64,000 bases of DNA from positions 832,001 through 896,000 of the forward strand of contig CAVXKA010000003.1 in NCBI GenBank assembly GCA_963762255.1, in the 5' to 3' direction. This document shows, piece after piece, positions 35,767 through 55,472 of this stretch. Position 1 is the stretch's first letter; every line of letters starts with the position of its first letter. The stretch comes from Candidatus Eiseniibacteriota bacterium (GTDB lineage: Bacteria > Eisenbacteria > RBG-16-71-46 > JABDJR01). The notes beneath the pieces are model-generated. The model searched no databases, was not told the origin of the DNA, and saw nothing but the letters and a program-made list of their open reading frames with translations. The translations under genes and the position numbers were made by a program.

Positions 35767-37614
35767 TCAACCGGCCGTGAAGGCGGGCAAGGTGACGATG
35801 AAGGCCGTGCCGAGCCCCGGTCTGCTGCGCATGTCGATGCTGCCGCCGTGCATTTCCACAGCTTGTTGAACCAGCGCCAGCCCCACCCCGGTTCCCTCTT
35901 TCTTGGTAGTGAAGTAGAGATCGAACACGCTCGCCTGCAGTTCGACAGGGATCCCCTCGCCGCAATCTTCGACGGTTAGACGGACCCGCTGACCTACAGG
36001 GTACGCGGAAACAGAGATCGGCGCCGACCCTGCCGGAGACGCCTGGATCGCGTTGCGCAAGAGATTGAGGAGGGCTTGGCGAAGGACCTCCTCGTCCCCG
36101 TAGATCTCCGGCAGATTCTCGGCCACGTCGAGGGTGATCTCGACGCCCGCCAGGCGTGCCTCAGGCAGGACCAGCTCGCGCAGTTCGCGCAGAAACGGTG
36201 CCACATCGATCGGCTTGAGGCTCAGCTCCTGCAGCCGGGCCAACCGCAAAAACCCGTACACGACACGCTCCAGCCGGGCGATCTCGCGTTGCACCACATC
36301 CACGTGCGTTTGACTGGCGTCGCCCCCCGAGTCGCCCAGCTTCTGCTTGAGCAGCTCGAGATGGATGTTCATCGCGTTGAGCGGGTTGCGCACTTCGTGG
36401 GCCACCCCTGCCGCCATCTTCCCCAACCGCGAGAGCACCCGCGCGTGGTCGAGCATCTCCTGGATCTGCCGCATCCGGCCGTAGTCGCGCAGCGTAATCA
36501 TCGCGCCTTGCCGGCTCGGACCCTCCCCGACCACCTGGCAGGTGCCCAGATAGACCCGATCCCCTTCCCCCGTCGTGAACTCCATCGGGGCGGACTCCGG
36601 GCGGTGATCGCCGCCGAAAGCCTTGTCGACCATCTGCACCAGGGGATGACCCGCGGAGAGAACCTCGCCCAGATCCCGGCCGACCATCGCGCCGAACCCC
36701 GCACCGAGGATCCGGCATGCGGTTCGATTGGCCATGAGCACCTGACGGCGCGAATCGATCATGAGCAGGCCGTCGTCCACGGCATCGACAAGGCGGCGGA
36801 GCGTGTCCCCTTCGCTCACGAGCGTGTCGCGCTGGAGCAAGAGCTGCGCCCGCTCCTGGGAAAGCACCTCGCTCAGCGCGTTGATCTGGCGGGCCAGGTG
36901 ACCGACTTCATCCTGCGATCCCACCGGCACGCGATAACCGAAGTCGCCCCGCTGCAAGTGATCGATGCCTGCCTCGATGCGGCTCAGCGGCCGGAGGATG
37001 ACGATCCACGACACCGCGACGCCGAAGGCGGTGGCCAGGAGCACCTGCAGGATGAGCTTCACGATCTGGGTGCGAAGCACCGTCTGCATCTCTTCGCGCA
37101 GGAGTCCCGGCGAGAGGCCGACACGTACGGTGCCGAAGTCCCGATCGTTGAGGAGAACCGGCACCGAGATCTCCCATGCCTCGTGCTGGTGCACGATGGA
37201 CATGAACTGGCGCAGGAGCCCGAGCCCGCGTGCGGGGACGAGGCCGGGGTGCCGCGCGATCCGCGAACCGAGCTGCGTGCTGTCCGAGTGGCAGAGAACC
37301 AGATCGGTGGTGTCGGCCACCACCAGGTAGAGGACGGACGGCGTGAACTGCTGGGCGTCGGTCAGAACGCTCCTCAGGCGCGGGTCGCCCCGCACGACCT
37401 GAGCGGGGTCCGCGCCCGCCGCGCTGCGCAGCGAGATGGCGATCTGACTGATCACGAGGTTGGCGGCAAGCTCCGCGCGGGCCACCGCCGACTCGACCTC
37501 GACCCGGGTCAGCGTGGCAACCTCGACCATGGCCGAGCCCACCCCGATCAGAAACGCGAATAGCGTCAGCGCGAGGATGAGGACGAGGCGGATGCCGGGC
37601 CGTACCTTCGTCAC
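35767..37614 (-). CDS. Sensor histidine kinase (periplasmic domain, HAMP, PAS, HisKA, HATPase)
   Basis: DEVGHLA (HAMP), AGVAHEVRNPLN, LLNLLRNA, DCGEGI, YFTTKKEGTGVGL; GTG overlaps regulator stop. Confidence 0.92.
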   Translation of the reverse strand: MTKVRPGIRLVLILALTLFAFLIGVGSAMVEVATLTRVEVESAVARAELAANLVISQIAISLRSAAGADPAQVVRGDPRLRSVLTDAQQFTPSVLYLVVADTTDLVLCHSDSTQLGSRIARHPGLVPARGLGLLRQFMSIVHQHEAWEISVPVLLNDRDFGTVRVGLSPGLLREEMQTVLRTQIVKLILQVLLATAFGVAVSWIVILRPLSRIEAGIDHLQRGDFGYRVPVGSQDEVGHLARQINALSEVLSQERAQLLLQRDTLVSEGDTLRRLVDAVDDGLLMIDSRRQVLMANRTACRILGAGFGAMVGRDLGEVLSAGHPLVQMVDKAFGGDHRPESAPMEFTTGEGDRVYLGTCQVVGEGPSRQGAMITLRDYGRMRQIQEMLDHARVLSRLGKMAAGVAHEVRNPLNAMNIHLELLKQKLGDSGGDASQTHVDVVQREIARLERVVYGFLRLARLQELSLKPIDVAPFLRELRELVLPEARLAGVEITLDVAENLPEIYGDEEVLRQALLNLLRNAIQASPAGSAPISVSAYPVGQRVRLTVEDCGEGIPVELQASVFDLYFTTKKEGTGVGLALVQQAVEMHGGSIDMRSRPGLGTAFIVTLPAFTAG

Positions 37615-39047
37615 GCCGGACGGCCTCGGTACTTCCTGAGCTTGTTGTGGAGCGTGCGGGTGCTGATGCCGAGGATCTCCGCGGCTCGCGTCTTGTTGTC
37701 GCTCGTCTTGCGTAGCGTCTCGAGAATGAGGAGCTTCTCCGCCTCCTCGACCGTGCTGCCGACGCTCACGACCACCGTGGCGGCGTGCGAGCCGTTCGAG
37801 GGAACCGCGGCGGGTGCGAGGGTGACGGTCGCGGGCTGCTCCGCGAGCGGCGAGCCCTCGGCACGCGCCGGCGGAGGGGGGCCCAGACTGGGCAGATCGC
37901 AGACGTCGATGAGGGACCCCGCGGCGACGACGACCGCCCGCTCCACCACATTGCGCAACTCGCGGACGTTGCCCGGCCACCGGTGGGCGCGCAGCGCATC
38001 CTGCGCCGCCGCCGTGAAGCCGTCGAAGGTCTTGCCGTTGGCGCAGGCGAACTCGTGCAGGAAGTGTTGAGCGAGGAGCGGCACGTCCTGCAGCCTCTCG
38101 CGCAGCGCCGGAAGCGCGATGGTGAAGACGTTGAGACGGTAGAAGAGGTCTTCGCGAAAGCGGCCGCTCTGGAGCGCCCGACCGATGTCGGCGTTGGTGG
38201 AGGAGATGACGCGAACGTCGACCGGGATCTCCTGCCGACCTCCGACGCGCCGGATGCTGCGCTCCTCGAGAACGCGCAGCAGCTTCGCCTGAAGTTCGGG
38301 GGGCATCTCCCCGATCTCGTCGAGGAGGAGCGTGCCGCCGGTGGCGAGTTCGAAGCACCCGGCCCGATCCGCGGTGGCCCCGGTGAAGGAACCCTTCTGG
38401 TGGCCGAGGATCTCGCTTTCCAGCAACGACTGCGGGATGGCCGCGCAGTTGACGGCAACGAAGGGCCTGTTGCGCCGCGGGCTCATCTCGTGAAGCGTTC
38501 GCGCCACGACTTCCTTGCCGGTACCGCTTTCCCCGGTGATGAGCACTGATACACGGCTCGGCGCGGCCTGCCCGACGAGCCGGTAGACGTCCTGCATGAT
38601 CGGCGTGCGGCCGACCAGGTGGCCGAACTTCCCGCGCTCGGCGAGATCGCGCGTGAGCCGCAGCAATTCCTCGCGATCGCTCACGCGCTCGACCGCCTTC
38701 TCGAGAACCACCTTGAGTCGGGCGAGGTCGACCGGCTTGGTGAGGTAGTCGTAGGCGCCTTCGCGCATCGCCTGAGTCGCGTTCTCGATCGTGCCGTGGC
38801 CGGTGAGAAGGATGAATACGGCGTGGGGGAGCTCCTCGCGAACTGCGCTCATCAGCTCGATGCCGGACGGGCCGGGCATCATCAGATCGGAGAGCACGAT
38901 GTGAGGGGAGAACTCCTTGCAGATCGCCAGCGCGTCCCGCGCATCCGATGCCGGACGGCTCTTGTATCCCCAGCCGGAGATGAGCTCGGTGAGTCCGGCG
39001 CGCGCGGCCTCTTCATCGTCAACGACGAGGACTCGATACGATGTCAT
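37611..39047 (-). CDS. Sigma-54-dependent response regulator (NtrC/AtoC family)
   Basis: [42 protein letters not shown]-terminal [11 protein letters not shown]. Confidence 0.95.
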
Positions 39048-39399
39048 GGGGTGATCGCCTCCGTGGGCCGGATCCTCGATAGGCTGCTTCACCGCAGACT
39101 CCGGGCCGACGGGTGGAGACAATGCGAGGCCCGTGCCGGAGACCGAAGAACCATGCTACCTCCCAAATTTCAATGAGTTACAGCAATCAAAGGCAAACCT
39201 GAAGCCAAGACTCCAGGGACAAATCGAATGAGTGCGCAAATTTTACACGGTTTCGGCCATTCGCGCACCCCGGGGATAGGGACTATTCTTCGCGCAGGTT
39301 TTTGCCGAGCCTGCCAAGGATGCAGAGTGGATTGATCAATTCGAGCCTACCGGGGGGGGTATGGCCGTCCAAACCGTTGAAAACACGTGATGCGTGGGG

Positions 39400-39415
39400 T
39401 GGCACCGCTCTTGCT
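39400..39415 (+). promoter_or_regulatory. Sigma-54 promoter (-24/-12) facing the cytochrome operon
   Basis: TGGCAC-CGCTC-TTGCT is an exact match to TGGCAC-N5-TTGCW, beside a divergent bEBP gene. Confidence 0.78.
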
Positions 39416-39890
39416 CTTAGACGCGGGTGGAAGACCGAACCGGAATTCGCCTGGTTGGATCTCCGGGCTAGGTTTGGCCAATCGAAGGCGATTCGGGCTT
39501 CCGAGAAGCCAACCCACGTGAAGCACGGTGGGGGGCCGGGCGGAATTGCTCGAAGAGCACGATGTTCGGTACGCCGCCCGGTCCCCCATCCCCCCCTCCT
39601 CGGCGAGCCGACCGGCGTCAGCGGCAAGCTCTGGTTGAACCGGACCACCGCCATGGACGGAGCGGTGGCCTGGTCGACCACCCAAAATGATGAACTGCAC
39701 CTTCGGGGGGGTTTCGTCTGGCACGACTTCGGGCTCCTCGGGGTGTTTCCCCCCGCTCGTGTTCACCCAGAATCCGGCTGGCGGCCGGGGTGGGAACCCC
39801 GGACCGGTCAAGGGGGTTTCGCTCTCGACCGATATCGATTGCAGGATCACCCTCAACTGAAAGCCCTCGGCTCCTCGTCACGGCATAGGT

Positions 39891-40754
39891 GTGCGTTTGA
39901 AACGGACTCTGTCGATCATCTTTGTCCTACTTGCTGGGATCGCGATCGCCGGCGCGCCGTACTACACTCTCCCCATGTCCGGACGGGTCCGCAGTTCCTT
40001 TCACGAGTGGCTCCGTCCCTCGGGCTATGTCGGTCAGTCGCTCGGCATCATCGGCCTCGCGTGCTTTCTCTTCCTCTGGCTCTACCCGGTGCGCAAGCAC
40101 TTTCCTCAACTGGCGCGCACGGGCTCTATCGCGCGGTGGCTCCACGTCCACGTCATCGCCGGGCTCGCGACGCCGTTCTTGGTGGCGCTCCATGCGGGGT
40201 TCCGCTTCTCGGGGCTGGCCGGCCTCGCCTTTGCAGCGATGGTCGTGGTCTGGATGAGCGGCATCGTCGGGCGCTACCTCTACGCCCGCATCCCCCGCAG
40301 CCGGACCGGGCTGGCACTGAGCATCCAGGAGATCGGAACCCAGCGAGAGGATCTGATCCGGCGCATCGCCGCCGCCACAGGCCTCCATCCAGCCGATGTC
40401 CGTAAGGACCTCGCGGTGGAAGACGTCATGCACAAGGGGCTCGGGAAGCGTCAAACGCTCCGCCTCCAGATCACGGGCGATCTCGCCCGCCGTCGCGCCG
40501 TGCGCGACTTCCGCGCGAGGATCCTCGCGGGCACAGGAGGGGCGGTGAACATCGACGCGGGCGCGCTCGACGAGGCGCTTCGGTGCGCCCGGCGGGAGCT
40601 CGCCCTCGCCCAGCAACTCCGACTCCTGGAAGGGACCCAGCGCGTCTTCCGCTTCTGGCATGTCGCCCATCGCCCGGTAGCAGTGACCGCGCTCGTCGCC
40701 GTCGCCGTTCACGTCGGCGTCGTGATCGCCGTCGGCAGCACGTGGTTCAGGTAG
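39891..40754 (+). CDS. Inner-membrane protein with conserved-looking His pairs (putative heme-b, ferric-reductase-like)
   Basis: About 5-6 TM helices; WLHVHVIAG, VALHAG, SGIVGRYLY, FWHVAHRP, VAVHV. Confidence 0.78.
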   Translation: MRLKRTLSIIFVLLAGIAIAGAPYYTLPMSGRVRSSFHEWLRPSGYVGQSLGIIGLACFLFLWLYPVRKHFPQLARTGSIARWLHVHVIAGLATPFLVALHAGFRFSGLAGLAFAAMVVVWMSGIVGRYLYARIPRSRTGLALSIQEIGTQREDLIRRIAAATGLHPADVRKDLAVEDVMHKGLGKRQTLRLQITGDLARRRAVRDFRARILAGTGGAVNIDAGALDEALRCARRELALAQQLRLLEGTQRVFRFWHVAHRPVAVTALVAVAVHVGVVIAVGSTWFR

Positions 40755-40758
40755 CACG

Positions 40759-42183
40759 ATGATCGCACTCGTAACCACTGTCGCCTTCTGCGCGGTGACC
40801 GGCACCTTGATGGCGATCCATCTGCGGCGCAGCGCCTGCCGCGACCAGGCCGCCCCTGCCGTTTCCTGTCCGCGGTGCCGGGCCGAGGTCCCGGAAGGCC
40901 AGGATCGGTGCCCTCGGTGCGGCGTCCCGCAACAGATCTACGAGGTCGTGAGCGCGCAGACGGTGGTTCTGGAGAACGAGCCCGAAAAGGTCGCCGGGGA
41001 GATCGCACACGCCGTCGTACGCGCCGACAAGTGCCTCGGTTGCGGCACCTGTGTGGCCGCATGCCCCGAGCCGGGCGCGATCACGCTCCAGGGGAAGCTG
41101 GCAGTCGTCAATACGGACATCTGCCTGGGTCACGGCACCTGCGCGCAGGCCTGCCCTATCGGCGCGATCTCGCTGGGTGCGGGCGCGGCGGTGCAGCGCG
41201 TCGAGGTGCCGGAAGTGGACGCGGATTTCCAGTCCAACGTGCCCGGTGTCTACATCGTGGGCGAGCTCGGAGGGCGCGGCCTCATCAAGAACGCGATCAA
41301 CGAGGGAAAGGTCGCCATCGAAGCGGTGATGCGCGAGACGCAGCTCGGCGCGCGCCGCGGCGCCGCGGACGACGTCTACGACGTCATCATCGTCGGCTCG
41401 GGACCCGCGGGGTTGAGCGCGGGTCTCGAAGCGCACCGCGCCGGCCTGCGCTACGTCATCCTGGAGCAGGGAACACCCGCCGACACGATTCGCAAGTACC
41501 CGCGGCACAAGCTCCTCCTCGCCGAACCGGTTTCCGTTCCGCTCTACGGAGATCTCTGGGTCGCAGACGCCTCGAAGGAGAGCCTCATCCAGGTGTGGGA
41601 GACGATCATCGCCAACACCGGGATCGCGATCCGCACCGATCACCGCGTCGAGGACGTCGTCCGCGACGGAGAGAACTTCAAGGTTCGCACCAGCAAGGGG
41701 GAGTACCAGGCGCGGCGGGTGGTGCTGGCGATCGGCCGGCGCGGCACCCCGCGCCGCCTAGGGGCGCCCGGCGAGGAGCTGGCCAAGGTCGTCTACGACA
41801 TCGTGGAAATGGACGCGTTCGCCGGCCGCAGAGTTCTGGTGGTAGGCGGAGGCGACAGCGCCGTGGAATCCGCCCTCGGGTTGTCCAACCAGAAGGGCAC
41901 GGTGGTGCACCTCGCCTACCGCGGCCGCGAATTCTCCCGAGTCAAGGAGCGCAATCGCGTCAAGCTCGACGAGGCCACGGCGGCGGGGCGCGTGACGCTG
42001 CTGCTGGACACGGACGTGCTGCGGATCCTCGACGAGGAGGTCGTGCTCAAGGTCGGTGGGCAGGAGACGAACCTCCCCAACGACAACGTCATCATTCGCA
42101 TCGGCGGAGAGCCCCCGTCCTCGTTCCTCGAGCGCGCCGGCGTGCGCGTGGTCCAGAAGGACGTACCCCTGGTGGCGGCATGA
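40759..42183 (+). CDS. Membrane-anchored 2x[4Fe-4S] ferredoxin + TrxR/YpdA-like FAD/NADPH oxidoreductase
   Basis: N-terminal TM, CPRC..CPRC ribbon, CLGCGTCVAACP, CLGHGTCAQACP, PGVYIVGELGG, IVGSGPAG, VVGGGDSA, AYRG. Confidence 0.88.
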   Translation: MIALVTTVAFCAVTGTLMAIHLRRSACRDQAAPAVSCPRCRAEVPEGQDRCPRCGVPQQIYEVVSAQTVVLENEPEKVAGEIAHAVVRADKCLGCGTCVAACPEPGAITLQGKLAVVNTDICLGHGTCAQACPIGAISLGAGAAVQRVEVPEVDADFQSNVPGVYIVGELGGRGLIKNAINEGKVAIEAVMRETQLGARRGAADDVYDVIIVGSGPAGLSAGLEAHRAGLRYVILEQGTPADTIRKYPRHKLLLAEPVSVPLYGDLWVADASKESLIQVWETIIANTGIAIRTDHRVEDVVRDGENFKVRTSKGEYQARRVVLAIGRRGTPRRLGAPGEELAKVVYDIVEMDAFAGRRVLVVGGGDSAVESALGLSNQKGTVVHLAYRGREFSRVKERNRVKLDEATAAGRVTLLLDTDVLRILDEEVVLKVGGQETNLPNDNVIIRIGGEPPSSFLERAGVRVVQKDVPLVAA

Positions 42184-42202
42184 CCGGCGAAGGCTGCAGG
42201 GA

Positions 42203-44295
42203 ATGACCCGCCATGCGTCACGATGGCTGCGGGCGGTTCTGATGATGGGCGCGCTGCTGCTGCCGCGCGCCTCGTCCGCGCAGATCTCGCCCGGTGAGCT
42301 CTCGCGGGACCATCGCTCGCTCGAAGGTCCGCTCAACTGCCGCTCGTGCCACGCCGGCAAGACGAAGGAGATGGATCGCAACTGCCTCTCCTGTCACCAG
42401 GACATCCAGCGGCTGCGGGAGCAGAAGCGAGGATTTCACGCGCGAAACGGGGACGCACCGTGCGCGAGCTGCCATCCCGATCATGCAGGACGGGACTTCG
42501 AGCTGATCGCCTGGGACGGCGGCTCGTTCGAGAAGTTCGACCATGCGAAGGCCGGCTGGCCGCTGGCGGGCAAGCACGCCAAGGCCGCCTGCCGCGACTG
42601 CCACCAGCCCAAGCATCAGTCGGTCGAGTTCATGAAGCTCTCCAAGCGCGAGGATCCCGCCGAGAGCTGGGTCGGCCTCGAAACGGCCTGCGCCTCGTGC
42701 CACGAAGACACGCACCGAGGGGCGCTCGGCCCCGAGTGCGCCCGCTGCCACGGGAACGAAGCCTGGAAGCCCGCCACCGCCTTCGACCACGCCGCCACCG
42801 CCTTCGCGCTGACCGGCAAGCACACCGACGTGGAGTGCGCGAAGTGCCACTCGGCGGCCTCGCTCTCTCTCGCCCGCGACGACCAGGGCCGTCCGATCCC
42901 GCTGTACAAGCCGCTCCCCCACGCCGAGTGCGGCGCCTGTCACCGCGATCCGCACGAGAACCGGTTGGGCGCGGCGTGCGCTTCCTGCCACAAGACCTCC
43001 GGGTTCCGCGATCTCGCGTCCGGCCCGTTCAACCACAGCCTCACCCGCTTCGCGTTGCGCGGCGCGCACGCCTCGGTGGAATGCGCGAAATGCCATGACC
43101 CGGTGAAGGCGGGAGGCAAGCGGCCGGCTCACGATCGCTGCGACACCTGTCACCGCGATGCCCATGCGGGTCAGACCCTGCTCAAGGGCGCATCGTCCGA
43201 GCCCGTCGCTCCCGACTGCGCGGCGTGTCACGACGAGCGCGCGTTCCGGCCTTCGGTCTTCACGGTGGAGCGCCACGCCACCACCGCCTATCCGCTCGAC
43301 GGCAAGCACCGCGCGATCGAATGCCGCGCGTGCCACGCGAAGATCCCGGCAGGAGTCCCGAAGGACTCGCTCGGAACCGCCGGCGTGCTCATGAAACCCA
43401 AGTTCGCCGCGTGCCGCGACTGCCACCCGAGTCGCACGGAAAGCAGCTCGCGCGGCGCGCCGACGGGGGCGCGTGCGAGTCCTGCCATCGGGTCCAGGGG
43501 TGGAAGCCCAGCCTCTTCACCGTCGAGGACCACAGCCGCCTGAAGCTGGCGCTTCAGGGCCGCCACGCCGAGGCGGAGTGCGCCGCCTGTCACGGGCCGC
43601 GCCGCAAGGATCTGCCCGCGTTGCCCTCCGCGGAGGTGACCGGAAAGGCCGGCGTTCTCCTCGCCCTGGAGTCGGCGGAGTGTGTGAGCTGTCACGTGGA
43701 TCCGCATGCCGGAAGACTCACAGCATCCGGGAAGCCTGAGCCGGCCGTGTGCGCGTCATGCCACGGATCGGGAGGGTTCGCTCCGTCGACGCTCGACATG
43801 GTGCACCACGCCGCGCTGGGGTTCGCTCTTGAAGGGGCCCACGCGGCCGCCTCCTGCCTGGACTGCCATGCAGAACTTGCACGGCCTCGGCGCGCCTCCA
43901 CCCTCATTCTGGCCGCCATGAAGGAACCGCTGCTTCCGTTCGGCCAGAAGCGCACCGCGTGCGTCGACTGTCATGAGGACGTGCATGGCGGGCAGTTCAA
44001 GATGCGCGACGACGGCGGCGCCTGCGGCGGTTGCCACGGGCAGGAGAGCTTCAAGCCGGCCGTCCGGTTCGACCACGATCGCGGCACGGCCTTTGCTTTG
44101 CAGGGCGCCCATGCCTCGGTCGCTTGCGCGAAATGCCACATCGGCCGGGTGGACCCGGACGGCGTGAAGCGCATCGTGTATCGCCCCGTCCCACGGGATT
44201 GCGAGAGTTGCCACGGAGGGAAGCGCATGGAAGGGATGGGCGTGGAGACGCGGGCCGGCGCGCGGCCGGCACAGAGCCAGGAGGGGGAACGGTGA
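42203..44295 (+). CDS. Periplasmic multiheme cytochrome c (~23 CxxCH), frameshift near 43430
   Basis: Signal ending ASSA-QISPGELS; 14 CxxCH in ORF 42056 plus 9 in ORF 43225; FDHxxxxFxLxGxH repeats. Confidence 0.88.
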
Positions 44296-47200
44296 AGCCG
44301 ACCAGGACGTCGACTCATCACGCTGCTCCTGGCGGCGGCGTGCCTGCTTGGACGACCCGAGCAAGGGACCGGCGCTCCCGATCCCGACTACCCGCATGGG
44401 ACCTTTGAGGAGGACTGCACGACCTGCCACTCCCCCGAGGCATGGAAACCTGCGAGCTTCAGCAAGGATTTCGACCACGCCGCGTTCGGAATCCCCCTGG
44501 AGGGCGCGCACGCTCAGACCACCTGTCTGAACTGCCATCGCACGCTCGAGTTCGCGGACACCGGGACGCGCTGCGGCGGACTGCCACCAGGACATTCACC
44601 AGAGTGAGATGGGGCCGGAGTGCGCCGACTGCCACACCACGCGCAGTTTCGGCGATCGCGAGCGCATCGAGGCGCGCCACCAGGTCACCCGGTTTCCTCT
44701 GACCGGCGCCCACAGCACGCTGGATTGCGAGAGTTGTCACGGAGGGTCGGGGCAGGGGCACCTGATCTTCGTCGGCACGGCCTCGGAGTGCGCCTCCTGC
44801 CATACGAACAACTACCAGGCTACCCAGCAGCCTCCGCACGCGCTGAACGCGTTCTCCACGGAATGCACCCTCTGCCATGGAACGTCGCAATGGGATGGCG
44901 CCGTGCTGTCCGCCTCCGGGTTGCACTCCTTCGATCACGGGAAGGGCGGGTTCCCGCTGAACGGTGCCCATGCCCGGCAAGAGTGCATGAGTTGCCACGG
45001 AGACGGGACATTCGCCGGCAAGAGCATCGAGTGCGCGTCCTGCCACCAGGCCGACTACGACGGCACGACCGACCCGAACCATGCCACGGCCGGATTCGGG
45101 CTGGAATGCGCGAGCTGCCACGGGATGGAGCAGTGGAGGGGGGCAGCCTTCGATCACAATAGAACCGACTTCGCGCTCACCGGCTCCCACGTTGAACAAG
45201 AGTGTCGATCCTGCCACGGCGGCGGGGTCTACAACGGCTTGAGCACGCAGTGCGCGTCATGCCATCAGGCCGACTACGACGATACGGACGACCCGGACCA
45301 CGCGGCCGCCGGGTATCCCTTGGAGTGCGCAAACTGCCACAACACCGGAGACTGGGAGGAGGCCGAGTTCGATCATAACAAGACCCAGTTCGCGTTGACC
45401 GGGTCGCACGTGGAGCAGGAATGCCGCTCGTGCCACGGCGGCGGGGTCTACAACGGCTTGAGCACGCAGTGCGCGTCATGCCATCAGGCCGACTACGACG
45501 GCACGACCGACCCGAATCATGCCCTGGCCGGGTTCGGGGTGGAATGCGCCACATGCCACGGAACGACGCAGTGGAATGGCGTTGTCTTCGATCACACCCA
45601 GACCCAGTTCGCCCTGACCGGCTCGCACATCGAGCAGGAGTGCCGCTCCTGCCACGGCGGCGGGGTCTACAACGGCTTGAGCATGCAGTGCGCGTCATGC
45701 CACCAGGCCGACTATGACGGCACGGACGACCCGAACCACGCTCTTGCCGGGTATCCGCTGGCGTGCGAGACCTGCCACAACACCGGAGACTGGGAGGAGG
45801 CCGACTTCGATCACAACCAGACCCAGTTCGCGTTGACCGGATCGCACGTGGAGCAGGAGTGCCGCTCCTGCCACGGCGGCGGAGTTTACGACGGGCTGAG
45901 TATGGAGTGCGCCTCCTGCCATCAGGCCGATTACGACGATACGGACGACCCGAACCACGCTCTGACCGGGTTCGCTCTGGAATGCGCGACCTGCCACGGG
46001 ACGACACAGTGGGATGGAGCAACCTTCGATCACAATCAGACCGACTTCGCACTGACCGGGGCGCACGTGGGCCGGGAGTGCGCGAGCTGCCACGGTGGTG
46101 GGGTCTACGACGGACTGAGCATGGAGTGCGCCTCCTGCCATCAGGCCGACTACAGCGCCACGACGGATCCAAACCATGCTGCCGCGGGATATCCGTTGGA
46201 CTGCAAGAGCTGTCACGGGACTGCACAGTGGGACGGCGCGACCTTCGATCACAACCGGACCCAGTTCCCCCTGACCGGTTCGCACATCGAGCGGGAGTGC
46301 CGCTCGTGTCACGGCGGTGGGGTCTACGACGGGTTGGCTACCCAGTGCGCATCCTGCCATCAAGCCAACTACAACAGCACCACCGACCCCGCTCACGCGG
46401 CAGCCGGTTTCGCGCTTCAGTGCGAGACTTGCCACAACACGACGCAGTGGGACGGGGCGACTTTCGATCATACCCAGACCCAGTTCGCGTTGACCGGGTC
46501 GCACATCGAGCAGGAGTGCCGCTCATGTCATGGCGGCGGGGTCTACAACGGACTGAGCATGGAGTGCGCCTCCTGCCACCAATCGGATTACGACGGCACC
46601 ACCGACCCGAACCACGCAGCCGCCGGGTATCCCCTGGAGTGCGAGACCTGTCACGGGACGGCACGGTGGGACGGAGCCGACTTCGATCACAGCCAGACCC
46701 AGTTCGCGCTGACCGGCTCGCACATCGAGCAGGAGTGCGCGAGTTGTCACGGCGGCGGGGTCTACAACGGGCTGAGCATGGAGTGCGCTTCGTGCCACCA
46801 ATCAGATTTCAGCGCGACTACCGACCCCAATCACGCGGCGGCCGGCTTCGCGCTTCAGTGCGAGACCTGTCACAACACGACGCAGTGGGACGGGGCGACC
46901 TTCGATCACAACCAGACCCAGTTCGCGCTGACCGGCTCGCACATCGAGCAGGAGTGCCGCTCATGTCATGACGGCGGGGTCTACAACGGGCTGAGCATGG
47001 AGTGCGCCTCCTGCCACCAGCCCGACTACGACACGACCACCGACCCGAACCACGCCGCTGCGGGGTATCCGTTGGACTGCCAGACCTGCCACGGAACGGC
47101 ACAGTGGGACGGAGCCGACTTCGATCACGCCCAGACCCTCTTCCCGCTAACTGGATCGCATATCGAACAGGAATGCCGCTCATGTCACGGCGGCGGCGTC

Positions 47201-50200
47201 TACGACGGGTTAGCTACCGAGTGCGCCTCCTGCCACCAGCCCGACTACGACGGAACGACCGATCCCAACCACGCGGCGGCCGGCTTCGCGACTTCAGTGC
47301 GAGACCTGCCATAACACGGCACAGTGGGACGGGGCGACCTTCGATCACAGCCAGACCCAGTTCGCACTGACCGGGTCGCACATCGAACAGGAGTGCCGCT
47401 CGTGTCACGGCGGCGGCGTCTACGACGGGTTAGCTACCGAGTGCGCCTCCTGCCACCAGCCCGACTACGACGGAACGACCGATCCCAACCACGCGGCGGC
47501 CGGCTTCGCGCTTACAGTGCGAGACCTGCCATAACACGACACAGTGGGACGGGGCGACCTTCGATCACAGCCAGACCCAGTTCGCACTGACCGGGTCGCA
47601 CATCGAACAGGAGTGCCGCTCGTGCCACGGCGGCGGCGTCTACGACGGGTTGGCTACCGAGTGCGCCTCCTGCCACCAGCCCGACTACGACGGAACGACC
47701 GATCCCAACCACGCGACCGCTGGTTACTCCACCCTGTGCGAGACGTGCCACGGCACGATGAAGTGGGAAGGCGCAGTATTCAATCACAGCCGCACGGACT
47801 TCCCGCTGACCGGGGCGCACGTCGAGCAGGAATGCCTGAGCTGCCACACCGATGGCGTCTACGACGGCCGAGCACGCAATGCGCCTCGTGCCACCGAGCC
47901 GAACTACAACGGGACGACGGATCCGGATCATGCGGCGGCCGGCTTCCCGACGAACTGCCAGACCTGCCACAACACGACGCAGTGGGAAGGGGCCACCTTC
48001 AACCACTCCAGACACAGCTTCCCGCTGACGGGATGCACACGTTCGCCAGAGTGCGACGCCTGCCACGGCGGCGGGGTCTTCGACGGCGAACCACGGAGTG
48101 CTTCTCCTGCCACCAGGCCGACTTCAACGGGACGACGAATCCCAATCACGTCAGCGCCGGCTTCCCCACGATTGCGCAGACGTGCCACACCACCAGCGGT
48201 GGCCGGGGGCCACCTTCAACCACTCAGACGATCTTCCCGCTGACCGGGGCCCACACCAGCGCGGACTGCAGCAGCTGCCACACCGGCGGGCGTCTACCAG
48301 GGGACCTCACACGCTGTGCTATTCCTGCCACCAGGCCGACTACAACGGGACCACGAATCCCAATCACGTCAGCGCCGGGTTCCCCCACGACTGCAGCACC
48401 TGTCACACCACGACAGCGGCTGGCCGGGAGCCACCTTCAACCACTCAGATCGCTTCCCGCTGACCGGCGGCTCACATCAGCGTCGGACTGCAGCACCTGC
48501 CACAGCGGCGGCGTCTACCAGGGACTGACCACCCTGTGCTATGCCTGCCACCAGGCCGACTACAACGGGACCACAAATCCCAATCACGCGCAGCGCCGGG
48601 TTCCCCGACCTGCAGCACCTGTCACAACACGAGCGTGGGCGGGAGCCGACTTCAACACAACCAGACTCGCTTCCCGCTGACCGGCGGCCACACGGCGTCA
48701 GGAGTGCCGCAACTGCCACGCCGGCGGTGTCTACCAGGGCATGACCACCGCTGTGCTACTCCTGCCACCAGGCCGACTACAACGGGACGACGAATCCCAA
48801 TCACGCGCAGGCCGGCTTCCCCATGAGTGCCAGACCTGCCACACCACCACGGCTGGGCCGGAGCGACCTTCAATCACTCCAGAGCGATCTTCCCGCTGAC
48901 CGGCGCCCACACGAACGTGGAGTGCAGCACTTGCCACGCCGGCGGCGTCTACAAGGGACTCGCACCCTGTGCTACTCCTGCCACCAGGCCGACTACAACG
49001 GGACAACGATCCCAATCACGCAGCGCCGGGTTTCTCACGATTGCGAGACCTGCCACACCATCAACGGCTGGCCGGGGGCCACCTTCAGCCATCGGACAGC
49101 TTCCCGATGACCGGGGCACACACGGCGTGCGAGCTGCACGAACTGCCACGCCGGCGGCGTCTACAGGGACTCGCACCCTCTGCTACTCCTGCCACCAGGG
49201 CGACTACAACGGGACCACGAATCCCAACCACGCCAACGCCGGTTTCTCACCGACTGCAGCACGTGCCACACCTCCACGGCTGGCCCGGAGCCACCTTCAA
49301 TCACCACGAGCTTCCCGCTGACCGGGGGCACAGCAACGTGGAGTGCAGCACCTGCCACGCCGGCGGCGTCTACAAGGGACTCGCACCCTGTGCTACTCCT
49401 GCCACCAGGCCGACTACAGCGGCACCACGAATCCCAACCACGCCCAGGCCGGCTTCTCGCCTGCAGTGCAGACCTGCCACACCACAACGGCTGGCCGGGA
49501 GCCACCTTCAACCACTCACAGACGAGCTTCCCGCTGACCGGCGCCCACATCGACAGGAGTGCCTGCCTCCTGCCACGGCGGCGGGGTGTACAACGGACCT
49601 CCACCGAGTGCTACTCCTGCCACCAGGCCGACTACGACGGGACCACCGACCCCAATCACGCCCGCCGGCTTCCCGGCTGACTGTGCCAGACGTGTCACAA
49701 CACCACGACCTGGCTTGGCGCCGTCTTCGATCACAACCAGTCGCAGTTTCCCCTCACCGGGGCCCATCTGGCCGTGGAATGCATGAGCTGCCACGGCGGC
49801 GGGGTCTACAACGGGTTGAGCACGCAATGCGCCTCCTGCCACCAGTCGGACTACAACGGCACGACGGATCCCAATCACGCCGCCGGCCGGGTTCTCGCTC
49901 CCAATGCCAGACCTGCCACACCACGACCGCCTGGCCGGGCGCGACATTCAACCACAGCCAGACGAGCTTCCCGCTTACGGGGTCGCACGTTCAGCAAGAG
50001 TGCCTGAGCTGTCACGGCGGCGGGGTCTACAACGGGTTGAGCACGCAATGCGCCTCCTGCCATCAGTCGGACTACAACGGCACGACGGACCCCAACCATA
50101 CCGCCGCCGGATTCCCGCTCCAGTGCCAGACCTGCCACAACACCACAACCTGGCAGGGGGCCACGTTCGATCACGATTCGCAGAACTTCCCGATCTATTC

Positions 50201-50397
50201 CGGCAGGCACCGCGACAAGTGGGATGTGTGCACCGACTGCCACACGAACGCGACCAACTACTCGGTCTTCTCCTGTCTGGGCTGCCACCCGCACTCCGAC
50301 AAGTGGGAAGACCGACTCGGATCACCGGGGCGAGTCGGGCTACAGGTACGACAGCGCGGCCTGCTACAACTGTCATCCTCGGGGTCAGGGGGGCTGA
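44292..50397 (+). CDS. Giant multiheme cytochrome c (~82 CxxCH, ~2000 aa), multiple frameshifts
   Basis: GTG overlaps upstream TGA; 36 CxxCH in ORF 44609..47314; repeats continue across frames to FDHDSQNFPIYSGRH...CTDCH..CLGCH..CYNCHPRGQGG*. Confidence 0.85.
44930..50166 (+). repeat. 24 tandem ~219-nt (73-aa) coding repeats, each a tri-heme module
   Basis: FDH/FNH starts at approx. 44930, 45149, 45368, 45587, 45806, 46025, 46244, 46463, 46682, 46901, 47120, 47340 ... 49947; consensus FDHxQTxFxLTGSHxxxECxSCHGGGVYxGLSxxCASCHQxDYxxTTDPNHxxAGFxxxCxTCHxTxxWxGA. Confidence 0.92.
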
Positions 50398-52014
50398 TGT
50401 TCGAGTTCATCCGCGGCGCGATCCTCCTCCTGGCCGCGCTGCTCGGCCTCTCCACCGTCGCGGGGGGCAGGAGGCACCGATCTCTCCCGCCGGCGCCGAC
50501 TTCCGTGGCCCATGTCACTTACATCACCGGGGGGCTCGTCTACCTGGACGCCGGCCGCGAGGACGGACTCGAAGTGGGCCGGGAACTGAGCGTGGAGCGC
50601 GAGGGTGCGGTCATCGCGACGATTCGGGTCGAGCACGTCGCCTCCCATCGCGCGTCGTGCTCGATCGTCGGTACCGGCGAGGCGCCTCGCGAGGGCGACG
50701 TGGTCCGTTACGCCCCGCGACCGGGAACGGAGTCGGGCGATTCGACCGCCTCGTCGGCCCCGATCCAGGTCGGGACGGGTCGTGACGGCCGGACTCTTCG
50801 CCAGCTCGGCCTGCGGGGACGGGTCGGCATCCGGTATCTCACCGCGCTAGATCAGACCGATTTCGGGGCCGACTTCACGCAGCCGTCGCTCGATCTTCTC
50901 CTCACGGGAACCGCGGTCGCCGGCAGCCCCTTCAGCTTCGCGCTCGACACCCGCGCGCGCCGCACCTACCGCACGCACGCGGACGGATCGCACACGGATG
51001 ACGGACGGACGCGGGTCTACCGGCTGAACGCGTCGCACCAGGCGACCGGATCCCCGCTGCGGATCTCGCTGGGACGCCAGGTGTCACCGGATCTCGCCTC
51101 GGTGAGCCTCTTCGACGGCGCGCTCGCCGAGTACGGACGCGCGACCACGGCCTGGGGGCTCTTCGGCGGGGCCACCAGCCCGATCCGGAGTCGTACGGCG
51201 TTAGCTCGCACGTCCTGGAGTACGGGACCTACGCCCGCGTGCAGAGCCCGCAGGGGCACTCGCTCAGGTGGTCGGCCACCGGGGGCGGGATTCGCTCGCT
51301 CGTGGACGGTGTACGCGATCGCGATTACGTCTTCTTGCGCGGGCAGCTCATGGACTCGCGCGTGTACGGATACGTGAGCCAGGAGATCGACGTCGACGAG
51401 TGGCGCGCCTCGGAGGGCGACCGGCGGCTCTTCTCGCCCACCAGCACGTACGCCGGCTTTCGGTGGCAGGCGGTGGAGTGGCTGAGCCTCAATGCCGGTT
51501 TCGACAACCGGAGGAGCGTGCGCCTCTATCAGGACCCGAGACCCCGGAGCACCGAATTCGACTACAGCTTCCGGCGAGGTCTGCGCGGAGGAGCGACGCT
51601 GCGACTCCAGGCAATCGCTTCACGCTGGGGACCAGCGCGCAGACCAACCGGGGCGGTTCGGGCGGCTCCTCCGACTCGTACACGATCACCTCACGGGCCG
51701 CCCGCGTGTCCCCTCTCTCGATCGACCTGGCCAGCCGGCACACGCGCTTCACGGGTCCGCTCACCGAGGGCTGGCTGCATTCCGCGAGCGCTGCCGCGCC
51801 GATCGGTCCTCGTCGCCGCGTGGAATTCGAAGGCGGCCGGCGTCAGGAAACCCGTTCGTTCGGTCCGGCCACATCCGTCGCCACGACGTGGTACGGGGTG
51901 AACGCCGACGTGGGATTGTGGTCGGGCTGGTACTTCCTGCTCTCGGTGACGTCCACGCGCGGCGACACCGAGAAGAACGATCAGATCTACTCGAGCCTCT
52001 CCTACCGCTTCTGA
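50397..52014 (+). CDS. Outer-membrane beta-barrel (porin-like) protein, frameshifted
   Basis: MFEFIRGAILLLAALLG signal, N-terminal VYLDAGREDGL domain, alternating beta-strand segments, ISLGRQ, C-terminal YSSLSYRF BAM-type signature; pieces in ORFs 48969, 51239, 51268. Confidence 0.75.
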
Positions 52015-52126
52015 CCGCGCGATCCTCGCCGTCCCGATCCCGCTTCTGCTACCCTGTCGAAACGTGCGCGGGTCGAGGCGGCCGTGCTCGCGCAGACCGC
52101 AGGCGTTCGCCGCAGGGGAGGATGCG

Positions 52127-52319
52127 TTGCCGAAGAAGAAGCAAGCGGCCGGTCCGAGATCGACTCCACCGACCCGGGACAAGACGAAACGACCCTCGCG
52201 CGGGGCCGGCACCGGCGCCCTCTGCGCCGAAGCGCAGGCCGACGGCGTCCCCTGTTTCGAGCTGGGCCGGGAATGCGCAACCTGCGAACGGGCGAGAGCG
52301 AGGCCGCGAGAGATCCTGA
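52127..52319 (+). CDS. Candidate small Cys4 protein (C-x9-C-x6-C-x2-C)
   Basis: GGGGAGG SD, TTG start, LPKKKQ...CAEAQADGVPCFELGRECATCER; a stop at 52317 requires an indel. Confidence 0.4.
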
Positions 52320-52334
52320 GCCGCGCGACCGCGA

Positions 52335-53551
<1,217 letters not shown>

Positions 53552-53555
<4 letters not shown>

Positions 53556-54286
53556 GTGGGCATCCCCGCGGCGGCCGTGTCGGTCCGCGACACGACCGGC
53601 CGGTCGTCGACCACGAGACCGTCGCTCAGCACGATGATCCGCTTCGCAAACTGCGCGATGTCCTGCTCGTGGGTGATGAGGAGGATCGTCATCCCCGCGC
53701 GGTTCAGTTCCTGCAAGACGCGCATCACCTCGAACGAGGTCGTGGTGTCGAGGTTCCCGGTCGGCTCGTCGGCCAGCAGCAACGGCGGCTCGTTGACCAG
53801 CGCGCGGGCGATGGCCACGCGCTGCTGCTGCCCGCCGGAGAGCTGGTTGGGAGCGTGGTGCGAGCGATCGGCGAGGCCCACCCGATCGAGCGCCTGATGG
53901 GCACGTTGCGCGATGGACCTTCCGCGGACGGACGAGTAGATCATCGGCAGCTCGACGTTCTCCAGCGCGCTGGTGCGGGCCAGCAGGTTGAAGCTCTGAA
54001 AGACGAACCCGATCTTCCGATTCCGGATCTCGGCCAGTTCGTCCCGCGAGAGGTGCGAGACGTCCTCGCCGTCCAGTTCGTAGATCCCTGACGTCGGACG
54101 GTCGAGGCAGCCGAGGATGTTCATGAGGGTGGACTTCCCGCTCCCCGACGACCCCATGACCGCGACCATCTCGCCCGGATCGACGTCGATCGACACGCCC
54201 CGCAGCGCCTGCACCTGGTTGTCGCCCTCGCCGTAGGTCTTGACCAGATCGCGGGCCCGCAGAACCCGTCGGTCAGCGCCGTGCAC
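53552..54286 (-). CDS. MacB/LolD-type ABC ATP-binding protein
   Basis: GSSGSGKST, IGFVFQSFNL, LSGGQQQRVAIARAL, LLADEPTGNLD. Confidence 0.95.
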
Positions 54287-55472
54287 GGGTCATGCCTCCG
54301 GGGGCGAACGGATTGACCTGACCCTGGGCCGCGCCCGCAGCCGACCCGTTGGTCGCGGCGATCACGACCTGCATTCCCTCTCGGAGCGAATCGGCGGCGA
54401 CGGCGGTGAAGGTCCCGTCGCTCAAACCGGGGGTCACGCGAACCCGGTGGAGCTTCCCGTTCTCGGCGAGGACGAAGACCGCGGGACCACCTCGCGCGCC
54501 GGCCGGCCGCTGTCCGTCCGCCGCGGCGCCCGGCGCTCGCACGGCCCCCGGCTTCGCCGCCGGCCGGAAGCGCAGCGCCGCCGACGGCACCCTCAGCACG
54601 CCGCGTGCCTCGTTCACGAGGAAGGTGGCGTTGGCGGTCATGCCGGGGAGCAGCAACTGATCGGGGTTCTCGACGAGGACGATCACCGTGTAGGACACCA
54701 CGTTCTGCACGGTCTGCGGGGCGAGGCGGATCTGGTGCACGACGCCGCTGAAGGTTCGCTCGGGGAACGCGTCGACGGTGAAGCTGACCTTCTGGTCGAC
54801 CTGGATCATGCCGATGTCGGCCTCGTCCACCGACGCCTCGAGCTGCATGCGGGTGAGGTCGTTGGCGATGGTGAAGAGGGTCGGCGCGGACAGCGAGGCG
54901 GCCACCGTCTGACCGACGTCGACGTTGCGCGAGATGACGATGCCGTCGATGGGAGAGGCGATGGTGGCGTAGTGCAGGTTCGTGCGCGCGCGATCGAGCG
55001 CGGCTTCCGCGGACTTCTGCGAGGCCTGGGCCGCCTCGAGCGCGGTTTGGGCCGCGTCGATTTCGGCCTGCGAAGCCAGACCCTGATCGCGCATGGGAGC
55101 TACCCGCGCGTAGTCCCGCTCCGCCTGGCGCACCGTCACCTTGGCTCGCTCCAGGTCGGCCTCGTTCTGCGACTCCTGCGCCTTCAGAAACGTCGGATCG
55201 AGCTGGGCGAGGACCTGGTTCTTGTGGACCCGGTCGTTGAAGTCGGCGTAGAGCGCGGCAGATGGTGCCGCTGACCTGGCTTCCGACCTGCACGGTGGTC
55301 ACCGCGTTCAGGGTTCCGGTGGCCGACACCTGAACGATCACGTCGCCACGCTGCACCGCCTCGGTGCGGTAGGGAGATTCCGGCTTCTGCTCCCGCCGCA
55401 GCGTCCACGCCACGACTGCGGCCCCCAGGACCACCACGACCGCCGCCAGGATGCCCCAGTCCTCTTGCGCAT
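54273..55472 (-). CDS. MacA-like periplasmic adaptor subunit (frameshifted)
   Basis: VSATGTLNAVTTVQVGSQVSG; IASPIDGIVISRNVDVGQTVAASLSAPTLF; LLPGMTA. Confidence 0.9.

Follow-up and report, generated by a model that had tools for sequence, protein, structure and literature searches.

A large c7-repeat multihaem cytochrome gene in a PCC3-type gene cluster of an Eisenbacteria genome

The main text of He et al. 2017 (PMC5566968) describes PCC3, a porin–cytochrome cluster that combines a porin, two multihaem cytochromes termed 'extracellular' and 'periplasmic', and a membrane protein of ~300 amino acids (aa). The 'extracellular' cytochrome is repeat-rich, with a median of 34 haems and 22–39 residues per haem, the 'periplasmic' cytochrome has a median of 21 haems, and the membrane protein has five helices, an SGXXG motif and two WX3HX13H motifs. 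According to the same text, these clusters come mostly from Proteobacteria, many of them iron oxidisers. Here, we analyse a 64,000-nt stretch of a Candidatus Eiseniibacteriota bacterium genome (assembly GCA_963762255.1, contig CAVXKA010000003.1, positions 832,001–896,000 of the forward strand; hereafter the window), and within it a gene at 44292–50397 on the plus strand for a giant cytochrome built from tandem trihaem repeats. The gene is a further large member, though not one of record size, of a type of outer-membrane electron conduit that is already on record.

The Shewanella MtrCAB complex, whose barrel has 26 strands, is built on the same general plan, in which an outer-membrane barrel encloses a rod of cytochrome and a surface cytochrome is added, but the Mtr cytochromes are decahaem proteins of another family, without tandem trihaem repeats. 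Closer in architecture are the c7-domain polymers of Geobacter, GSU1996, GSU0592 (12 haems) and GSU2210 (27 haems), which the cited account describes as periplasmic and capacitor-like, with one His–Met haem per domain in the GSU1996 type (PMC10138318). The window protein is likewise a single chain of tandem c7-type trihaem domains, recognised by common Pfam and NCBIfam models. It differs in having 24 units rather than 4 or 9, three extra invariant His and no conserved Met where GSU1996 is reported to have one His–Met haem per domain, a conserved C-terminal module, and a barrel gene paired with it. In Burkholderiales, Arbour et al. 2020 (PMC7399161) report a porin encoded after 24- and 49-haem cytochromes with variable motif number. 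The order of a ~24-haem cytochrome, a larger and variable cytochrome and a porin of 20–24 predicted strands resembles that in the window, whereas the phylum is another, the cytochrome is smaller, and the porin is termed OmbB-like by its authors.

Very large cytochromes are also on record. Wasmund et al. 2024 (PMC11495043) report secreted Saprospiraceae cytochromes with more than 100 CxxCH motifs and one with 112 in a Paludibaculum metagenome-assembled genome (MAG), and voice a capacitor-like idea; a 2026 preprint (bioRxiv 10.64898/2026.05.27.727921) reports up to 116 motifs. The proteins of both sources, with their more than 100 motifs, are similar to ours in being secreted and in the wire or capacitor speculation attached to them, and differ in that the passages concerned give counts without repeat anatomy or gene cluster. 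A 2025 preprint states that genome mining has turned up chains exceeding 100 motifs and that no solved structure contains more than 16 haems. In the Gallionellaceae pangenome paper (PMC9900912), PCC3 cytochromes are modelled as long and linear, with reach and charge storage both discussed. The novelty that the original prediction implied does not survive this comparison: for a giant wire, an 85-haem PCC3 member and the proposal of a molecular wire date from 2017 (PMC5566968), and for size and the capacitor idea, the counts of 112 and 116 and the capacitor-like proposal are in print as cited above.

Read through its frame shifts, the giant cytochrome gene contains 82 CxxCH motifs, 7 in the head, 3 in each of 24 units and 3 in the tail. 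The ~82 haems from 24 trihaem modules proposed from a first reading of the DNA are thus borne out as a count of motifs, and so are the coordinates to the nucleotide: the GTG start at 44292 overlaps the TGA of the upstream 23-haem cytochrome gene (GTGA), and the TGA stop at 50395–50397 overlaps the ATG of the downstream barrel gene (TGATG). With all three frames listed over 42000–52000, the plus strand holds 101 CxxCH between 42338 and 50362, which divide into 23 in the upstream gene (42338–44200) and 78 in the giant gene (44416–50362). The latter are the motifs intact in some frame; correction for indels restores 4 more, near 44578, 48175, 49465 and 49560, and yields the total of 82. The parts of the gene are:

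44292–50397, plus strand: giant c7-repeat multihaem cytochrome gene, ~2035 codons, 82 CxxCH on read-through, 36 frame shifts in the assembly
44292–44983, plus strand: N-terminus resembling a signal peptide, and an N-terminal module outside the repeats that has 7 CxxCH; the frame shifts at 44313 and 44578
44984–50219, plus strand: array of 24 trihaem units, each 219 bp or 73 aa, defined by nhmmer and a frameshift-aware alignment
47174–47613, plus strand: units 11 and 12, which share 99% identity and both carry a +1 shift at the matching spot
48052–49560, plus strand: units 15–21, a distinct sub-family with 23 of the 33 array frame shifts and no counterpart in the homolog P0122
50220–50397, plus strand: C-terminal module, conserved and outside the repeats, that has 3 CxxCH (FPIYSG.H ... 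CY.CHP.G); the frame shifts at 50304

Tandem Repeats Finder detects a single array (45022–50174, period 219 bp, 23.6 copies, 76% matches), and a DNA profile of the unit searched with nhmmer gives 25 matches, namely the degenerate end of the N-terminal module plus 24 regular units, 44984–50219. Units 15–21 are 79–88% alike among themselves and 65–77% alike to the remaining units, and units other than 11 and 12 diverge by at least 11%. Frame shifts were called by aligning the DNA to the unit consensus, and both ends to the intact protein P0122, with frame shifts allowed; 2 fall in the head, 33 in units 11–23 (47291–49901) and 1 in the tail. Only 44531–47311 reads as a single open frame, of 927 aa with 36 motifs. 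Over its aligned part the head agrees with P0122 at 215 of 230 residues, and the signal peptide shows no clear lipobox. The whole gene spends 24.8 residues on each haem (~2035 codons for 82 motifs).

The 73-aa repeat had been described as carrying three CxxCH and three additional His, in FDH, GSH and PNH, and all of these prove invariant when 51 segments of four units each, taken from the window and from five related loci, are aligned. The invariant positions of a unit are C1, C4, H5, C17, C20, H21, P31, H33, C42, C45, H46, H58, T61, T66, G67 and H69, of which H33 (PNH), H58 (FDH) and H69 (GSH or GAH) are the His outside CxxCH. The 927-aa open part matches Pfam Cytochrome_C7 (PF14522) at 3.5e-46, with 155.3 bits against a cut-off of 24.8 over 11 stretches, and NCBIfam TIGR04257, the c(7)-type cytochrome triheme domain, with 49.5 bits against a cut-off of 40. 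By these profile matches the repeat is classed as a c7-type trihaem domain. The Mtr/DmsE decahaem family was tried and rejected (TIGR03508, 43 bits against a cut-off of 192.2).

Across homologs, the supply of distal His follows the same pattern. Motif statistics were drawn from 240 listed homologs (P0001–P0240), which contain 15,662 gaps from one motif to the next: His is absent from 4977 of 5452 short gaps (91%), at least one is present in 4808 of 4874 middle gaps (98.6%), and at least two are present in 5248 of 5258 long gaps (99.8%). No conserved Met column occurs among the repeat homologs, the top Met column in alignment A1 reaching 27%. Because the 1:1 distal His are kept across homologs and no Met is conserved, all-bis-His ligation is the natural reading of the sequences for the repeat haems. 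The original proposal that all haems could be bis-His ligated therefore stands at the level of sequence, in the gene and in the 240 homologs, and as a statement on ligation itself it stays conditional.

Proteins of this kind are numerous and vary widely in length. Of 8000 candidates scored with the 927-aa open part, 5960 homologs are 509–1623 aa long and 411 are 1624–4635 aa long. Among the 240 listed, the median is 25.0 residues per haem, 54 have at least 82 motifs and 8 at least 100, and the largest intact open reading frame (ORF) is P0125, with 3415 aa and 137 motifs. The motif count has the form 3n+1 in 177 of the 240 (40, 43, 46 ... 100), which fits a fixed 10-haem frame to which whole trihaem units are added. 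The closest listed homolog, P0122, is intact, with 1747 aa, 70 motifs, 88–93% identity and a matching head and tail. Matches occur in 19 of 41 related genomes, including intact orthologs with 61 motifs (G006) and 85 motifs (G034). The closest named relatives are MAGs labelled Eisenbacteria, Gemmatimonadota, Acidobacteriota and Bacteroidota, and the homolog list also contains Saprospiraceae and Bryobacterales proteins with 67–112 motifs. The comparison of repeat number among homologs thus shows wide variation, from 16 to 137 motifs.

The giant cytochrome is the fourth gene of a five-gene operon, and the overlaps at its two ends amount to translational coupling with its neighbours. The other members are:

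39814–40754, plus strand: inner-membrane protein of ~310 aa, with two WX3HX13H motifs (40137, 40656) and SGIVG (40257); 4 frame-shift events
40759–42183, plus strand: membrane-anchored iron–sulfur (FeS) flavoprotein, with a zinc ribbon, two [4Fe-4S] clusters and an oxidoreductase domain binding flavin adenine dinucleotide (FAD) and NAD(P)
42182–44295, plus strand: 23-haem cytochrome with c7/c3-type domains; one frame shift near 43427
50397–52014, plus strand: outer-membrane beta-barrel gene, ~540 aa, 4 frame shifts, its start overlapping the cytochrome stop

The inner-membrane protein matches no Pfam family, and a protein-cluster search with it returned 'hypothetical protein' clusters only. 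The SGXXG motif and both WX3HX13H motifs are present in the window protein and in 3 orthologs. In the FeS flavoprotein, Pfam Pyr_redox_3 matches at 3.5e-44 alongside Fer4 families, and the ortholog has an N-terminal hydrophobic helix. Orthologs of the 23-haem cytochrome in two related loci (L013 and L014) also have 23 CxxCH.

Set beside PCC3 as described in the main text of PMC5566968, the operon shows an outer-membrane barrel gene adjoining the cytochrome, a large repeat-rich cytochrome with 24.8 residues per haem (against 22–39), and a second cytochrome of 23 haems (against ~21). The membrane protein shares SGXXG and the two WX3HX13H motifs; a crude hydropathy scan gives it 4–5 hydrophobic helices, an approximate count and not a firm five. 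By these defining features, rather than by sequence homology to the proteobacterial proteins, the cluster is PCC3-type. It differs in its closest named relatives, which are Eisenbacteria, Gemmatimonadota, Acidobacteriota and Bacteroidota MAGs, and in having a conserved gene for an FeS flavoprotein, of which PMC5566968 makes no mention in its main text. An FeS flavoprotein as part of a PCC3-like cluster was not found in literature searches that covered the main text of PMC5566968.

The gene order is conserved. A genome of the same family (G006) has the order of the window intact: membrane protein, Fer4-flavoprotein, 23-haem cytochrome, 61-haem cytochrome and barrel. Of 13 loci in relatives, 10 have the barrel gene directly downstream of the cytochrome gene, at a distance of −3 to +75 nt. 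A search with the C-terminal module, using one genome per species, gave at least 587 confirmed matches, and the following locus counts refer to the best 80 (L036–L115). These carry labels of Gemmatimonadota, Eisenbacteria, Acidobacteriota, Latescibacteria, Ignavibacteria, Bacteroidota, Calditrichaeota and Binatia MAGs, and their cytochromes have from 16 to 85 motifs. In 75 of the 80, a barrel homolog is encoded downstream of the cytochrome and on its strand; of the other five loci, two end at a contig edge, and three (L082, L090 and L113) have room yet no match. The membrane protein is encoded on the same strand in 56 loci and the FeS flavoprotein in 58; the two occur together in 51, and many of the remaining loci end short on their upstream side. 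Both WX3HX13H motifs are present in 51 of the 56 membrane-protein homologs. Where membrane protein and flavoprotein are both found, the flavoprotein gene comes directly after the membrane-protein gene in 43 of 51 loci; in 7 loci the flavoprotein gene lies downstream of the barrel.

On contig C23 of genome G024 (L022), the barrel gene adjoins a second, weaker cytochrome match at 274483–276126, and the best match to the giant cytochrome is ~175 kb off. The pairing of this cytochrome with the barrel is hence not universal, since in G024 the barrel adjoins another cytochrome.

The barrel protein matches no Pfam or NCBIfam family, and its own family comprises 1395 representative clusters at E ≤ 0.001. 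A structure model of an ortholog, built from 118 sequences with a mean predicted local distance difference test (pLDDT) of 91.1, predicts, besides a signal helix and a small beta domain, a ~22-stranded barrel that has no plug domain. Compared with the 22-strand barrels of TonB-dependent transporters, the model gives VIA Z scores of 16–19 over 330–357 residues, and the top Foldseek matches are usher pores and Occ porins. A complex prediction of barrel residues 32–542 with residues 47–125 of the cytochrome C-terminal module and three haems scored 0.01 and 0.06 against a mark of 0.32, and was not used as evidence.

Upstream of the operon lie a candidate promoter and a divergent pair of regulatory genes:

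39400–39414, plus strand: sigma-54 promoter-like site TGGCACCGCTCTTGC, between the operon and the divergent regulators; the only exact match in the 64-kb window
37611–39122, minus strand: NtrC-type sigma-54-dependent response regulator, divergent from the operon (Response_reg, Sigma54_activat at 5.3e-70, HTH_8)
35767–37610, minus strand: sensor histidine kinase (sCache, HAMP, PAS, HisKA, HATPase_c), its start uncertain, as the listed ORF extends to 38358

A promoter and terminator scan over 38500–53000 found nothing above chance. Together, the site and the two-component pair suggest signal-dependent expression of the whole conduit.

From these data, we infer that the gene probably encodes the large repeat-built cytochrome of a PCC3-type porin–cytochrome cluster, working as a bis-His rod in an outer-membrane conduit. 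The secreted protein would comprise a signal peptide, a 7-haem head, 24 c7-like trihaem units and the conserved 3-haem tail. Each haem would take the His of its CxxCH and a dedicated second His, and the haems, probably low-spin and closely packed, would line up as one long conducting rod. GSU1996 reportedly measures ~1 nm per haem, so a rod of this haem number may be several tens of nanometres long. Its four partners would be made together with it: the 23-haem cytochrome, the plug-less barrel of ~22 predicted strands, the inner-membrane protein with two putative b-haem sites, and the membrane-anchored FeS flavoprotein. Electrons would enter at the inner membrane through the protein with the two putative b haems. 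They would come either from quinones, the source proposed in PMC5566968, or from NAD(P)H by way of the adjacent FeS flavoprotein, to which the conserved pair of genes points. From there they would pass to the 23-haem cytochrome in the periplasm, through the wide barrel, and on along the giant cytochrome, which would lie at the cell surface or outside it. Gain or loss of repeats would tune reach or charge storage, and the operon is probably activated through the sigma-54 promoter by the adjacent two-component system.

A tighter version of this scheme, which we hold only tentatively and think unlikely to be right, makes the five gene products one system, in place of the four-part PCC3 of the literature. 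The flavoprotein and the dihaem-b-like membrane protein would form a split NADPH-oxidase or ferric reductase, so that electrons from NAD(P)H would run over FAD, FeS clusters and two b haems to the 23-haem cytochrome and out to the surface rod, independently of quinones. This proposal is made because 58 of the 80 loci encode the flavoprotein and because, in 43 of the 51 with both genes, it comes immediately after the membrane protein.

Instead of a conduit, the giant cytochrome might be a periplasmic electron store, a buffer for times of acceptor shortage, which is the role put forward for cytochromes of the GSU1996 type. The Geobacter polymers are described in just these terms (PMC10138318), similar roles have been suggested for giant forms in PMC11495043 and in PMC9900912, and a signal peptide without a clear lipobox would suit such a location. 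We nonetheless consider a pure store improbable, given a plug-less outer-membrane barrel that is paired with the cytochrome in 75 of 80 loci and translationally coupled to it in the window; moreover, 82 haems are about three times the 21–27 that PMC9900912 states to suffice for spanning the periplasm. Storage and conduction are in any case compatible with each other. Several observations weigh against the conduit reading that we prefer. An AlphaFold2 model of four units from the 51-row alignment failed (pLDDT 55.4, predicted template modelling score 0.22) and is too poor to use, which leaves the c7 fold and the rod shape as inferred features; a Foldseek search of the PDB with it returned one meaningless row (E 9.5), which was set aside. 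Searching solved structures with the profile of alignment A1 gave marginal matches only, to NrfH (0.0014) and a reaction-centre cytochrome (0.0023), and no c7 or GSU1996 structure matched at E ≤ 0.01 in this profile search of the PDB. The sigma-54 site is one consensus match, and the likeness to PCC3 is one of defining features. Further points of the same kind concern the state of the gene itself, to which we now turn.

The 36 frame shifts are, on the sequence evidence, very probably errors of a low-accuracy assembly and not biology. We read the breaks in this way because rpoB, a MacB permease gene and the operon neighbours are frame-shifted as well. In the same assembly (G000, contig C2:1289523–1293342; L001 and L002), rpoB lies in two adjoining pieces in different frames with a junction at ~1290803–1290808, a break in an essential gene that an indel introduced during assembly would likely explain. 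A MacA/MacB-type efflux operon (HlyD, ABC ATPase, MacB permease) occupies 52335–55437 of the window on the minus strand; its permease is spread over at least three frames, with MacB_PCD 1–49, MacB_PCD 131–179 and FtsX in separate ORFs, and its HlyD gene also shifts frame. The other four genes of the cytochrome operon show 11 shift events in 6.1 kb relative to intact orthologs. Were the shifts real, at least in units 11–23, the gene would be a pseudogene with a truncated product or none. The density of shifts is indeed very uneven, with 33 packed into the 2.8 kb of units 11–23 and none in the 2.2 kb of units 1–10, and the rate in units 11–23 is about six times that of the neighbouring genes. 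The ratio of non-synonymous to synonymous substitution rates is 0.45 among units 15–21 against 0.16 among units 2–10, units 11 and 12 have a shift at one common spot, and 3 array motifs are without a Cys in the best reading. These features count towards decay and against the view of the breaks as artefacts, although the raised ratio in units 15–21 is compatible with a noisy consensus as well as with relaxed selection. Decay is nevertheless very unlikely in our judgement. The shift-corrected gene runs for ~2035 codons with no in-frame stop, and in units 11–23 the distal His and 36 of 39 CxxCH are retained. Shifts recur at unit positions aa 12, 15–16, 39–41 and 49, and at 15–16 and 39 they are +1 in some units and −1 in others, a pattern that resembles consensus errors tied to sequence context more than inherited mutations. 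By eye, no defensible sequence motif of the kind expected for methylation-linked base-calling errors is shared by the shift sites. The ortholog in genome G007 is split too, yet those in G006 and P0122 are intact.

A real gene with an array of misassembled length, so that neither 24 units nor 82 haems would be correct, is somewhat unlikely. With units 11 and 12 at 99% identity the count may be off by a few units, the consensus is at its worst in the similar sub-array of units 15–21, and that sub-family is missing from P0122, the closest intact relative, with its 70 motifs. Against this, the other units differ by at least 11%, unlike the products of duplicate collapse or duplicate expansion, intact relatives vary naturally (61, 70 and 85 motifs), and 82 falls in the 3n+1 series followed by 177 of the 240 homologs. 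We read units 15–21 as a young, very similar sub-array in which polishing failed.

As a probable conduit component, the gene adds a large member from a little-studied lineage to a family without bench-tested function. That 75 of 80 loci pair the cytochrome with a barrel favours conduction over storage alone. Should the conduit interpretation hold, such clusters would mark a capacity for extracellular electron transfer in Gemmatimonadota, Eisenbacteria, Acidobacteriota and Bacteroidota of soils, sediments and wastewater. If the five-part reading is also true, this transfer would be quinone-independent, with loci in MAGs of at least 8 higher-taxon labels, a rod of tens of nanometres and a reach tuned by repeat number. 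The conserved FeS flavoprotein partner is the one point for which we found no precedent in the literature searched, and it suggests how electrons enter. The regular anatomy of the protein, with its 73-aa units, six invariant His and 3n+1 counts, suits constructs of 1–4 units for testing bis-His wires.

Breaks of the same appearance are seen in other members of the family. In G007, another relative assembled in large contigs, the ortholog (L014, 7758–13694) also lies in three frames, with 51 + 9 + 14 motifs, and in the database protein P0128 the C-terminal ~120 aa are out-of-frame repeat sequence. Long-contig assemblies, and databases derived from them, may often contain repeat cytochrome genes of this kind in broken form.

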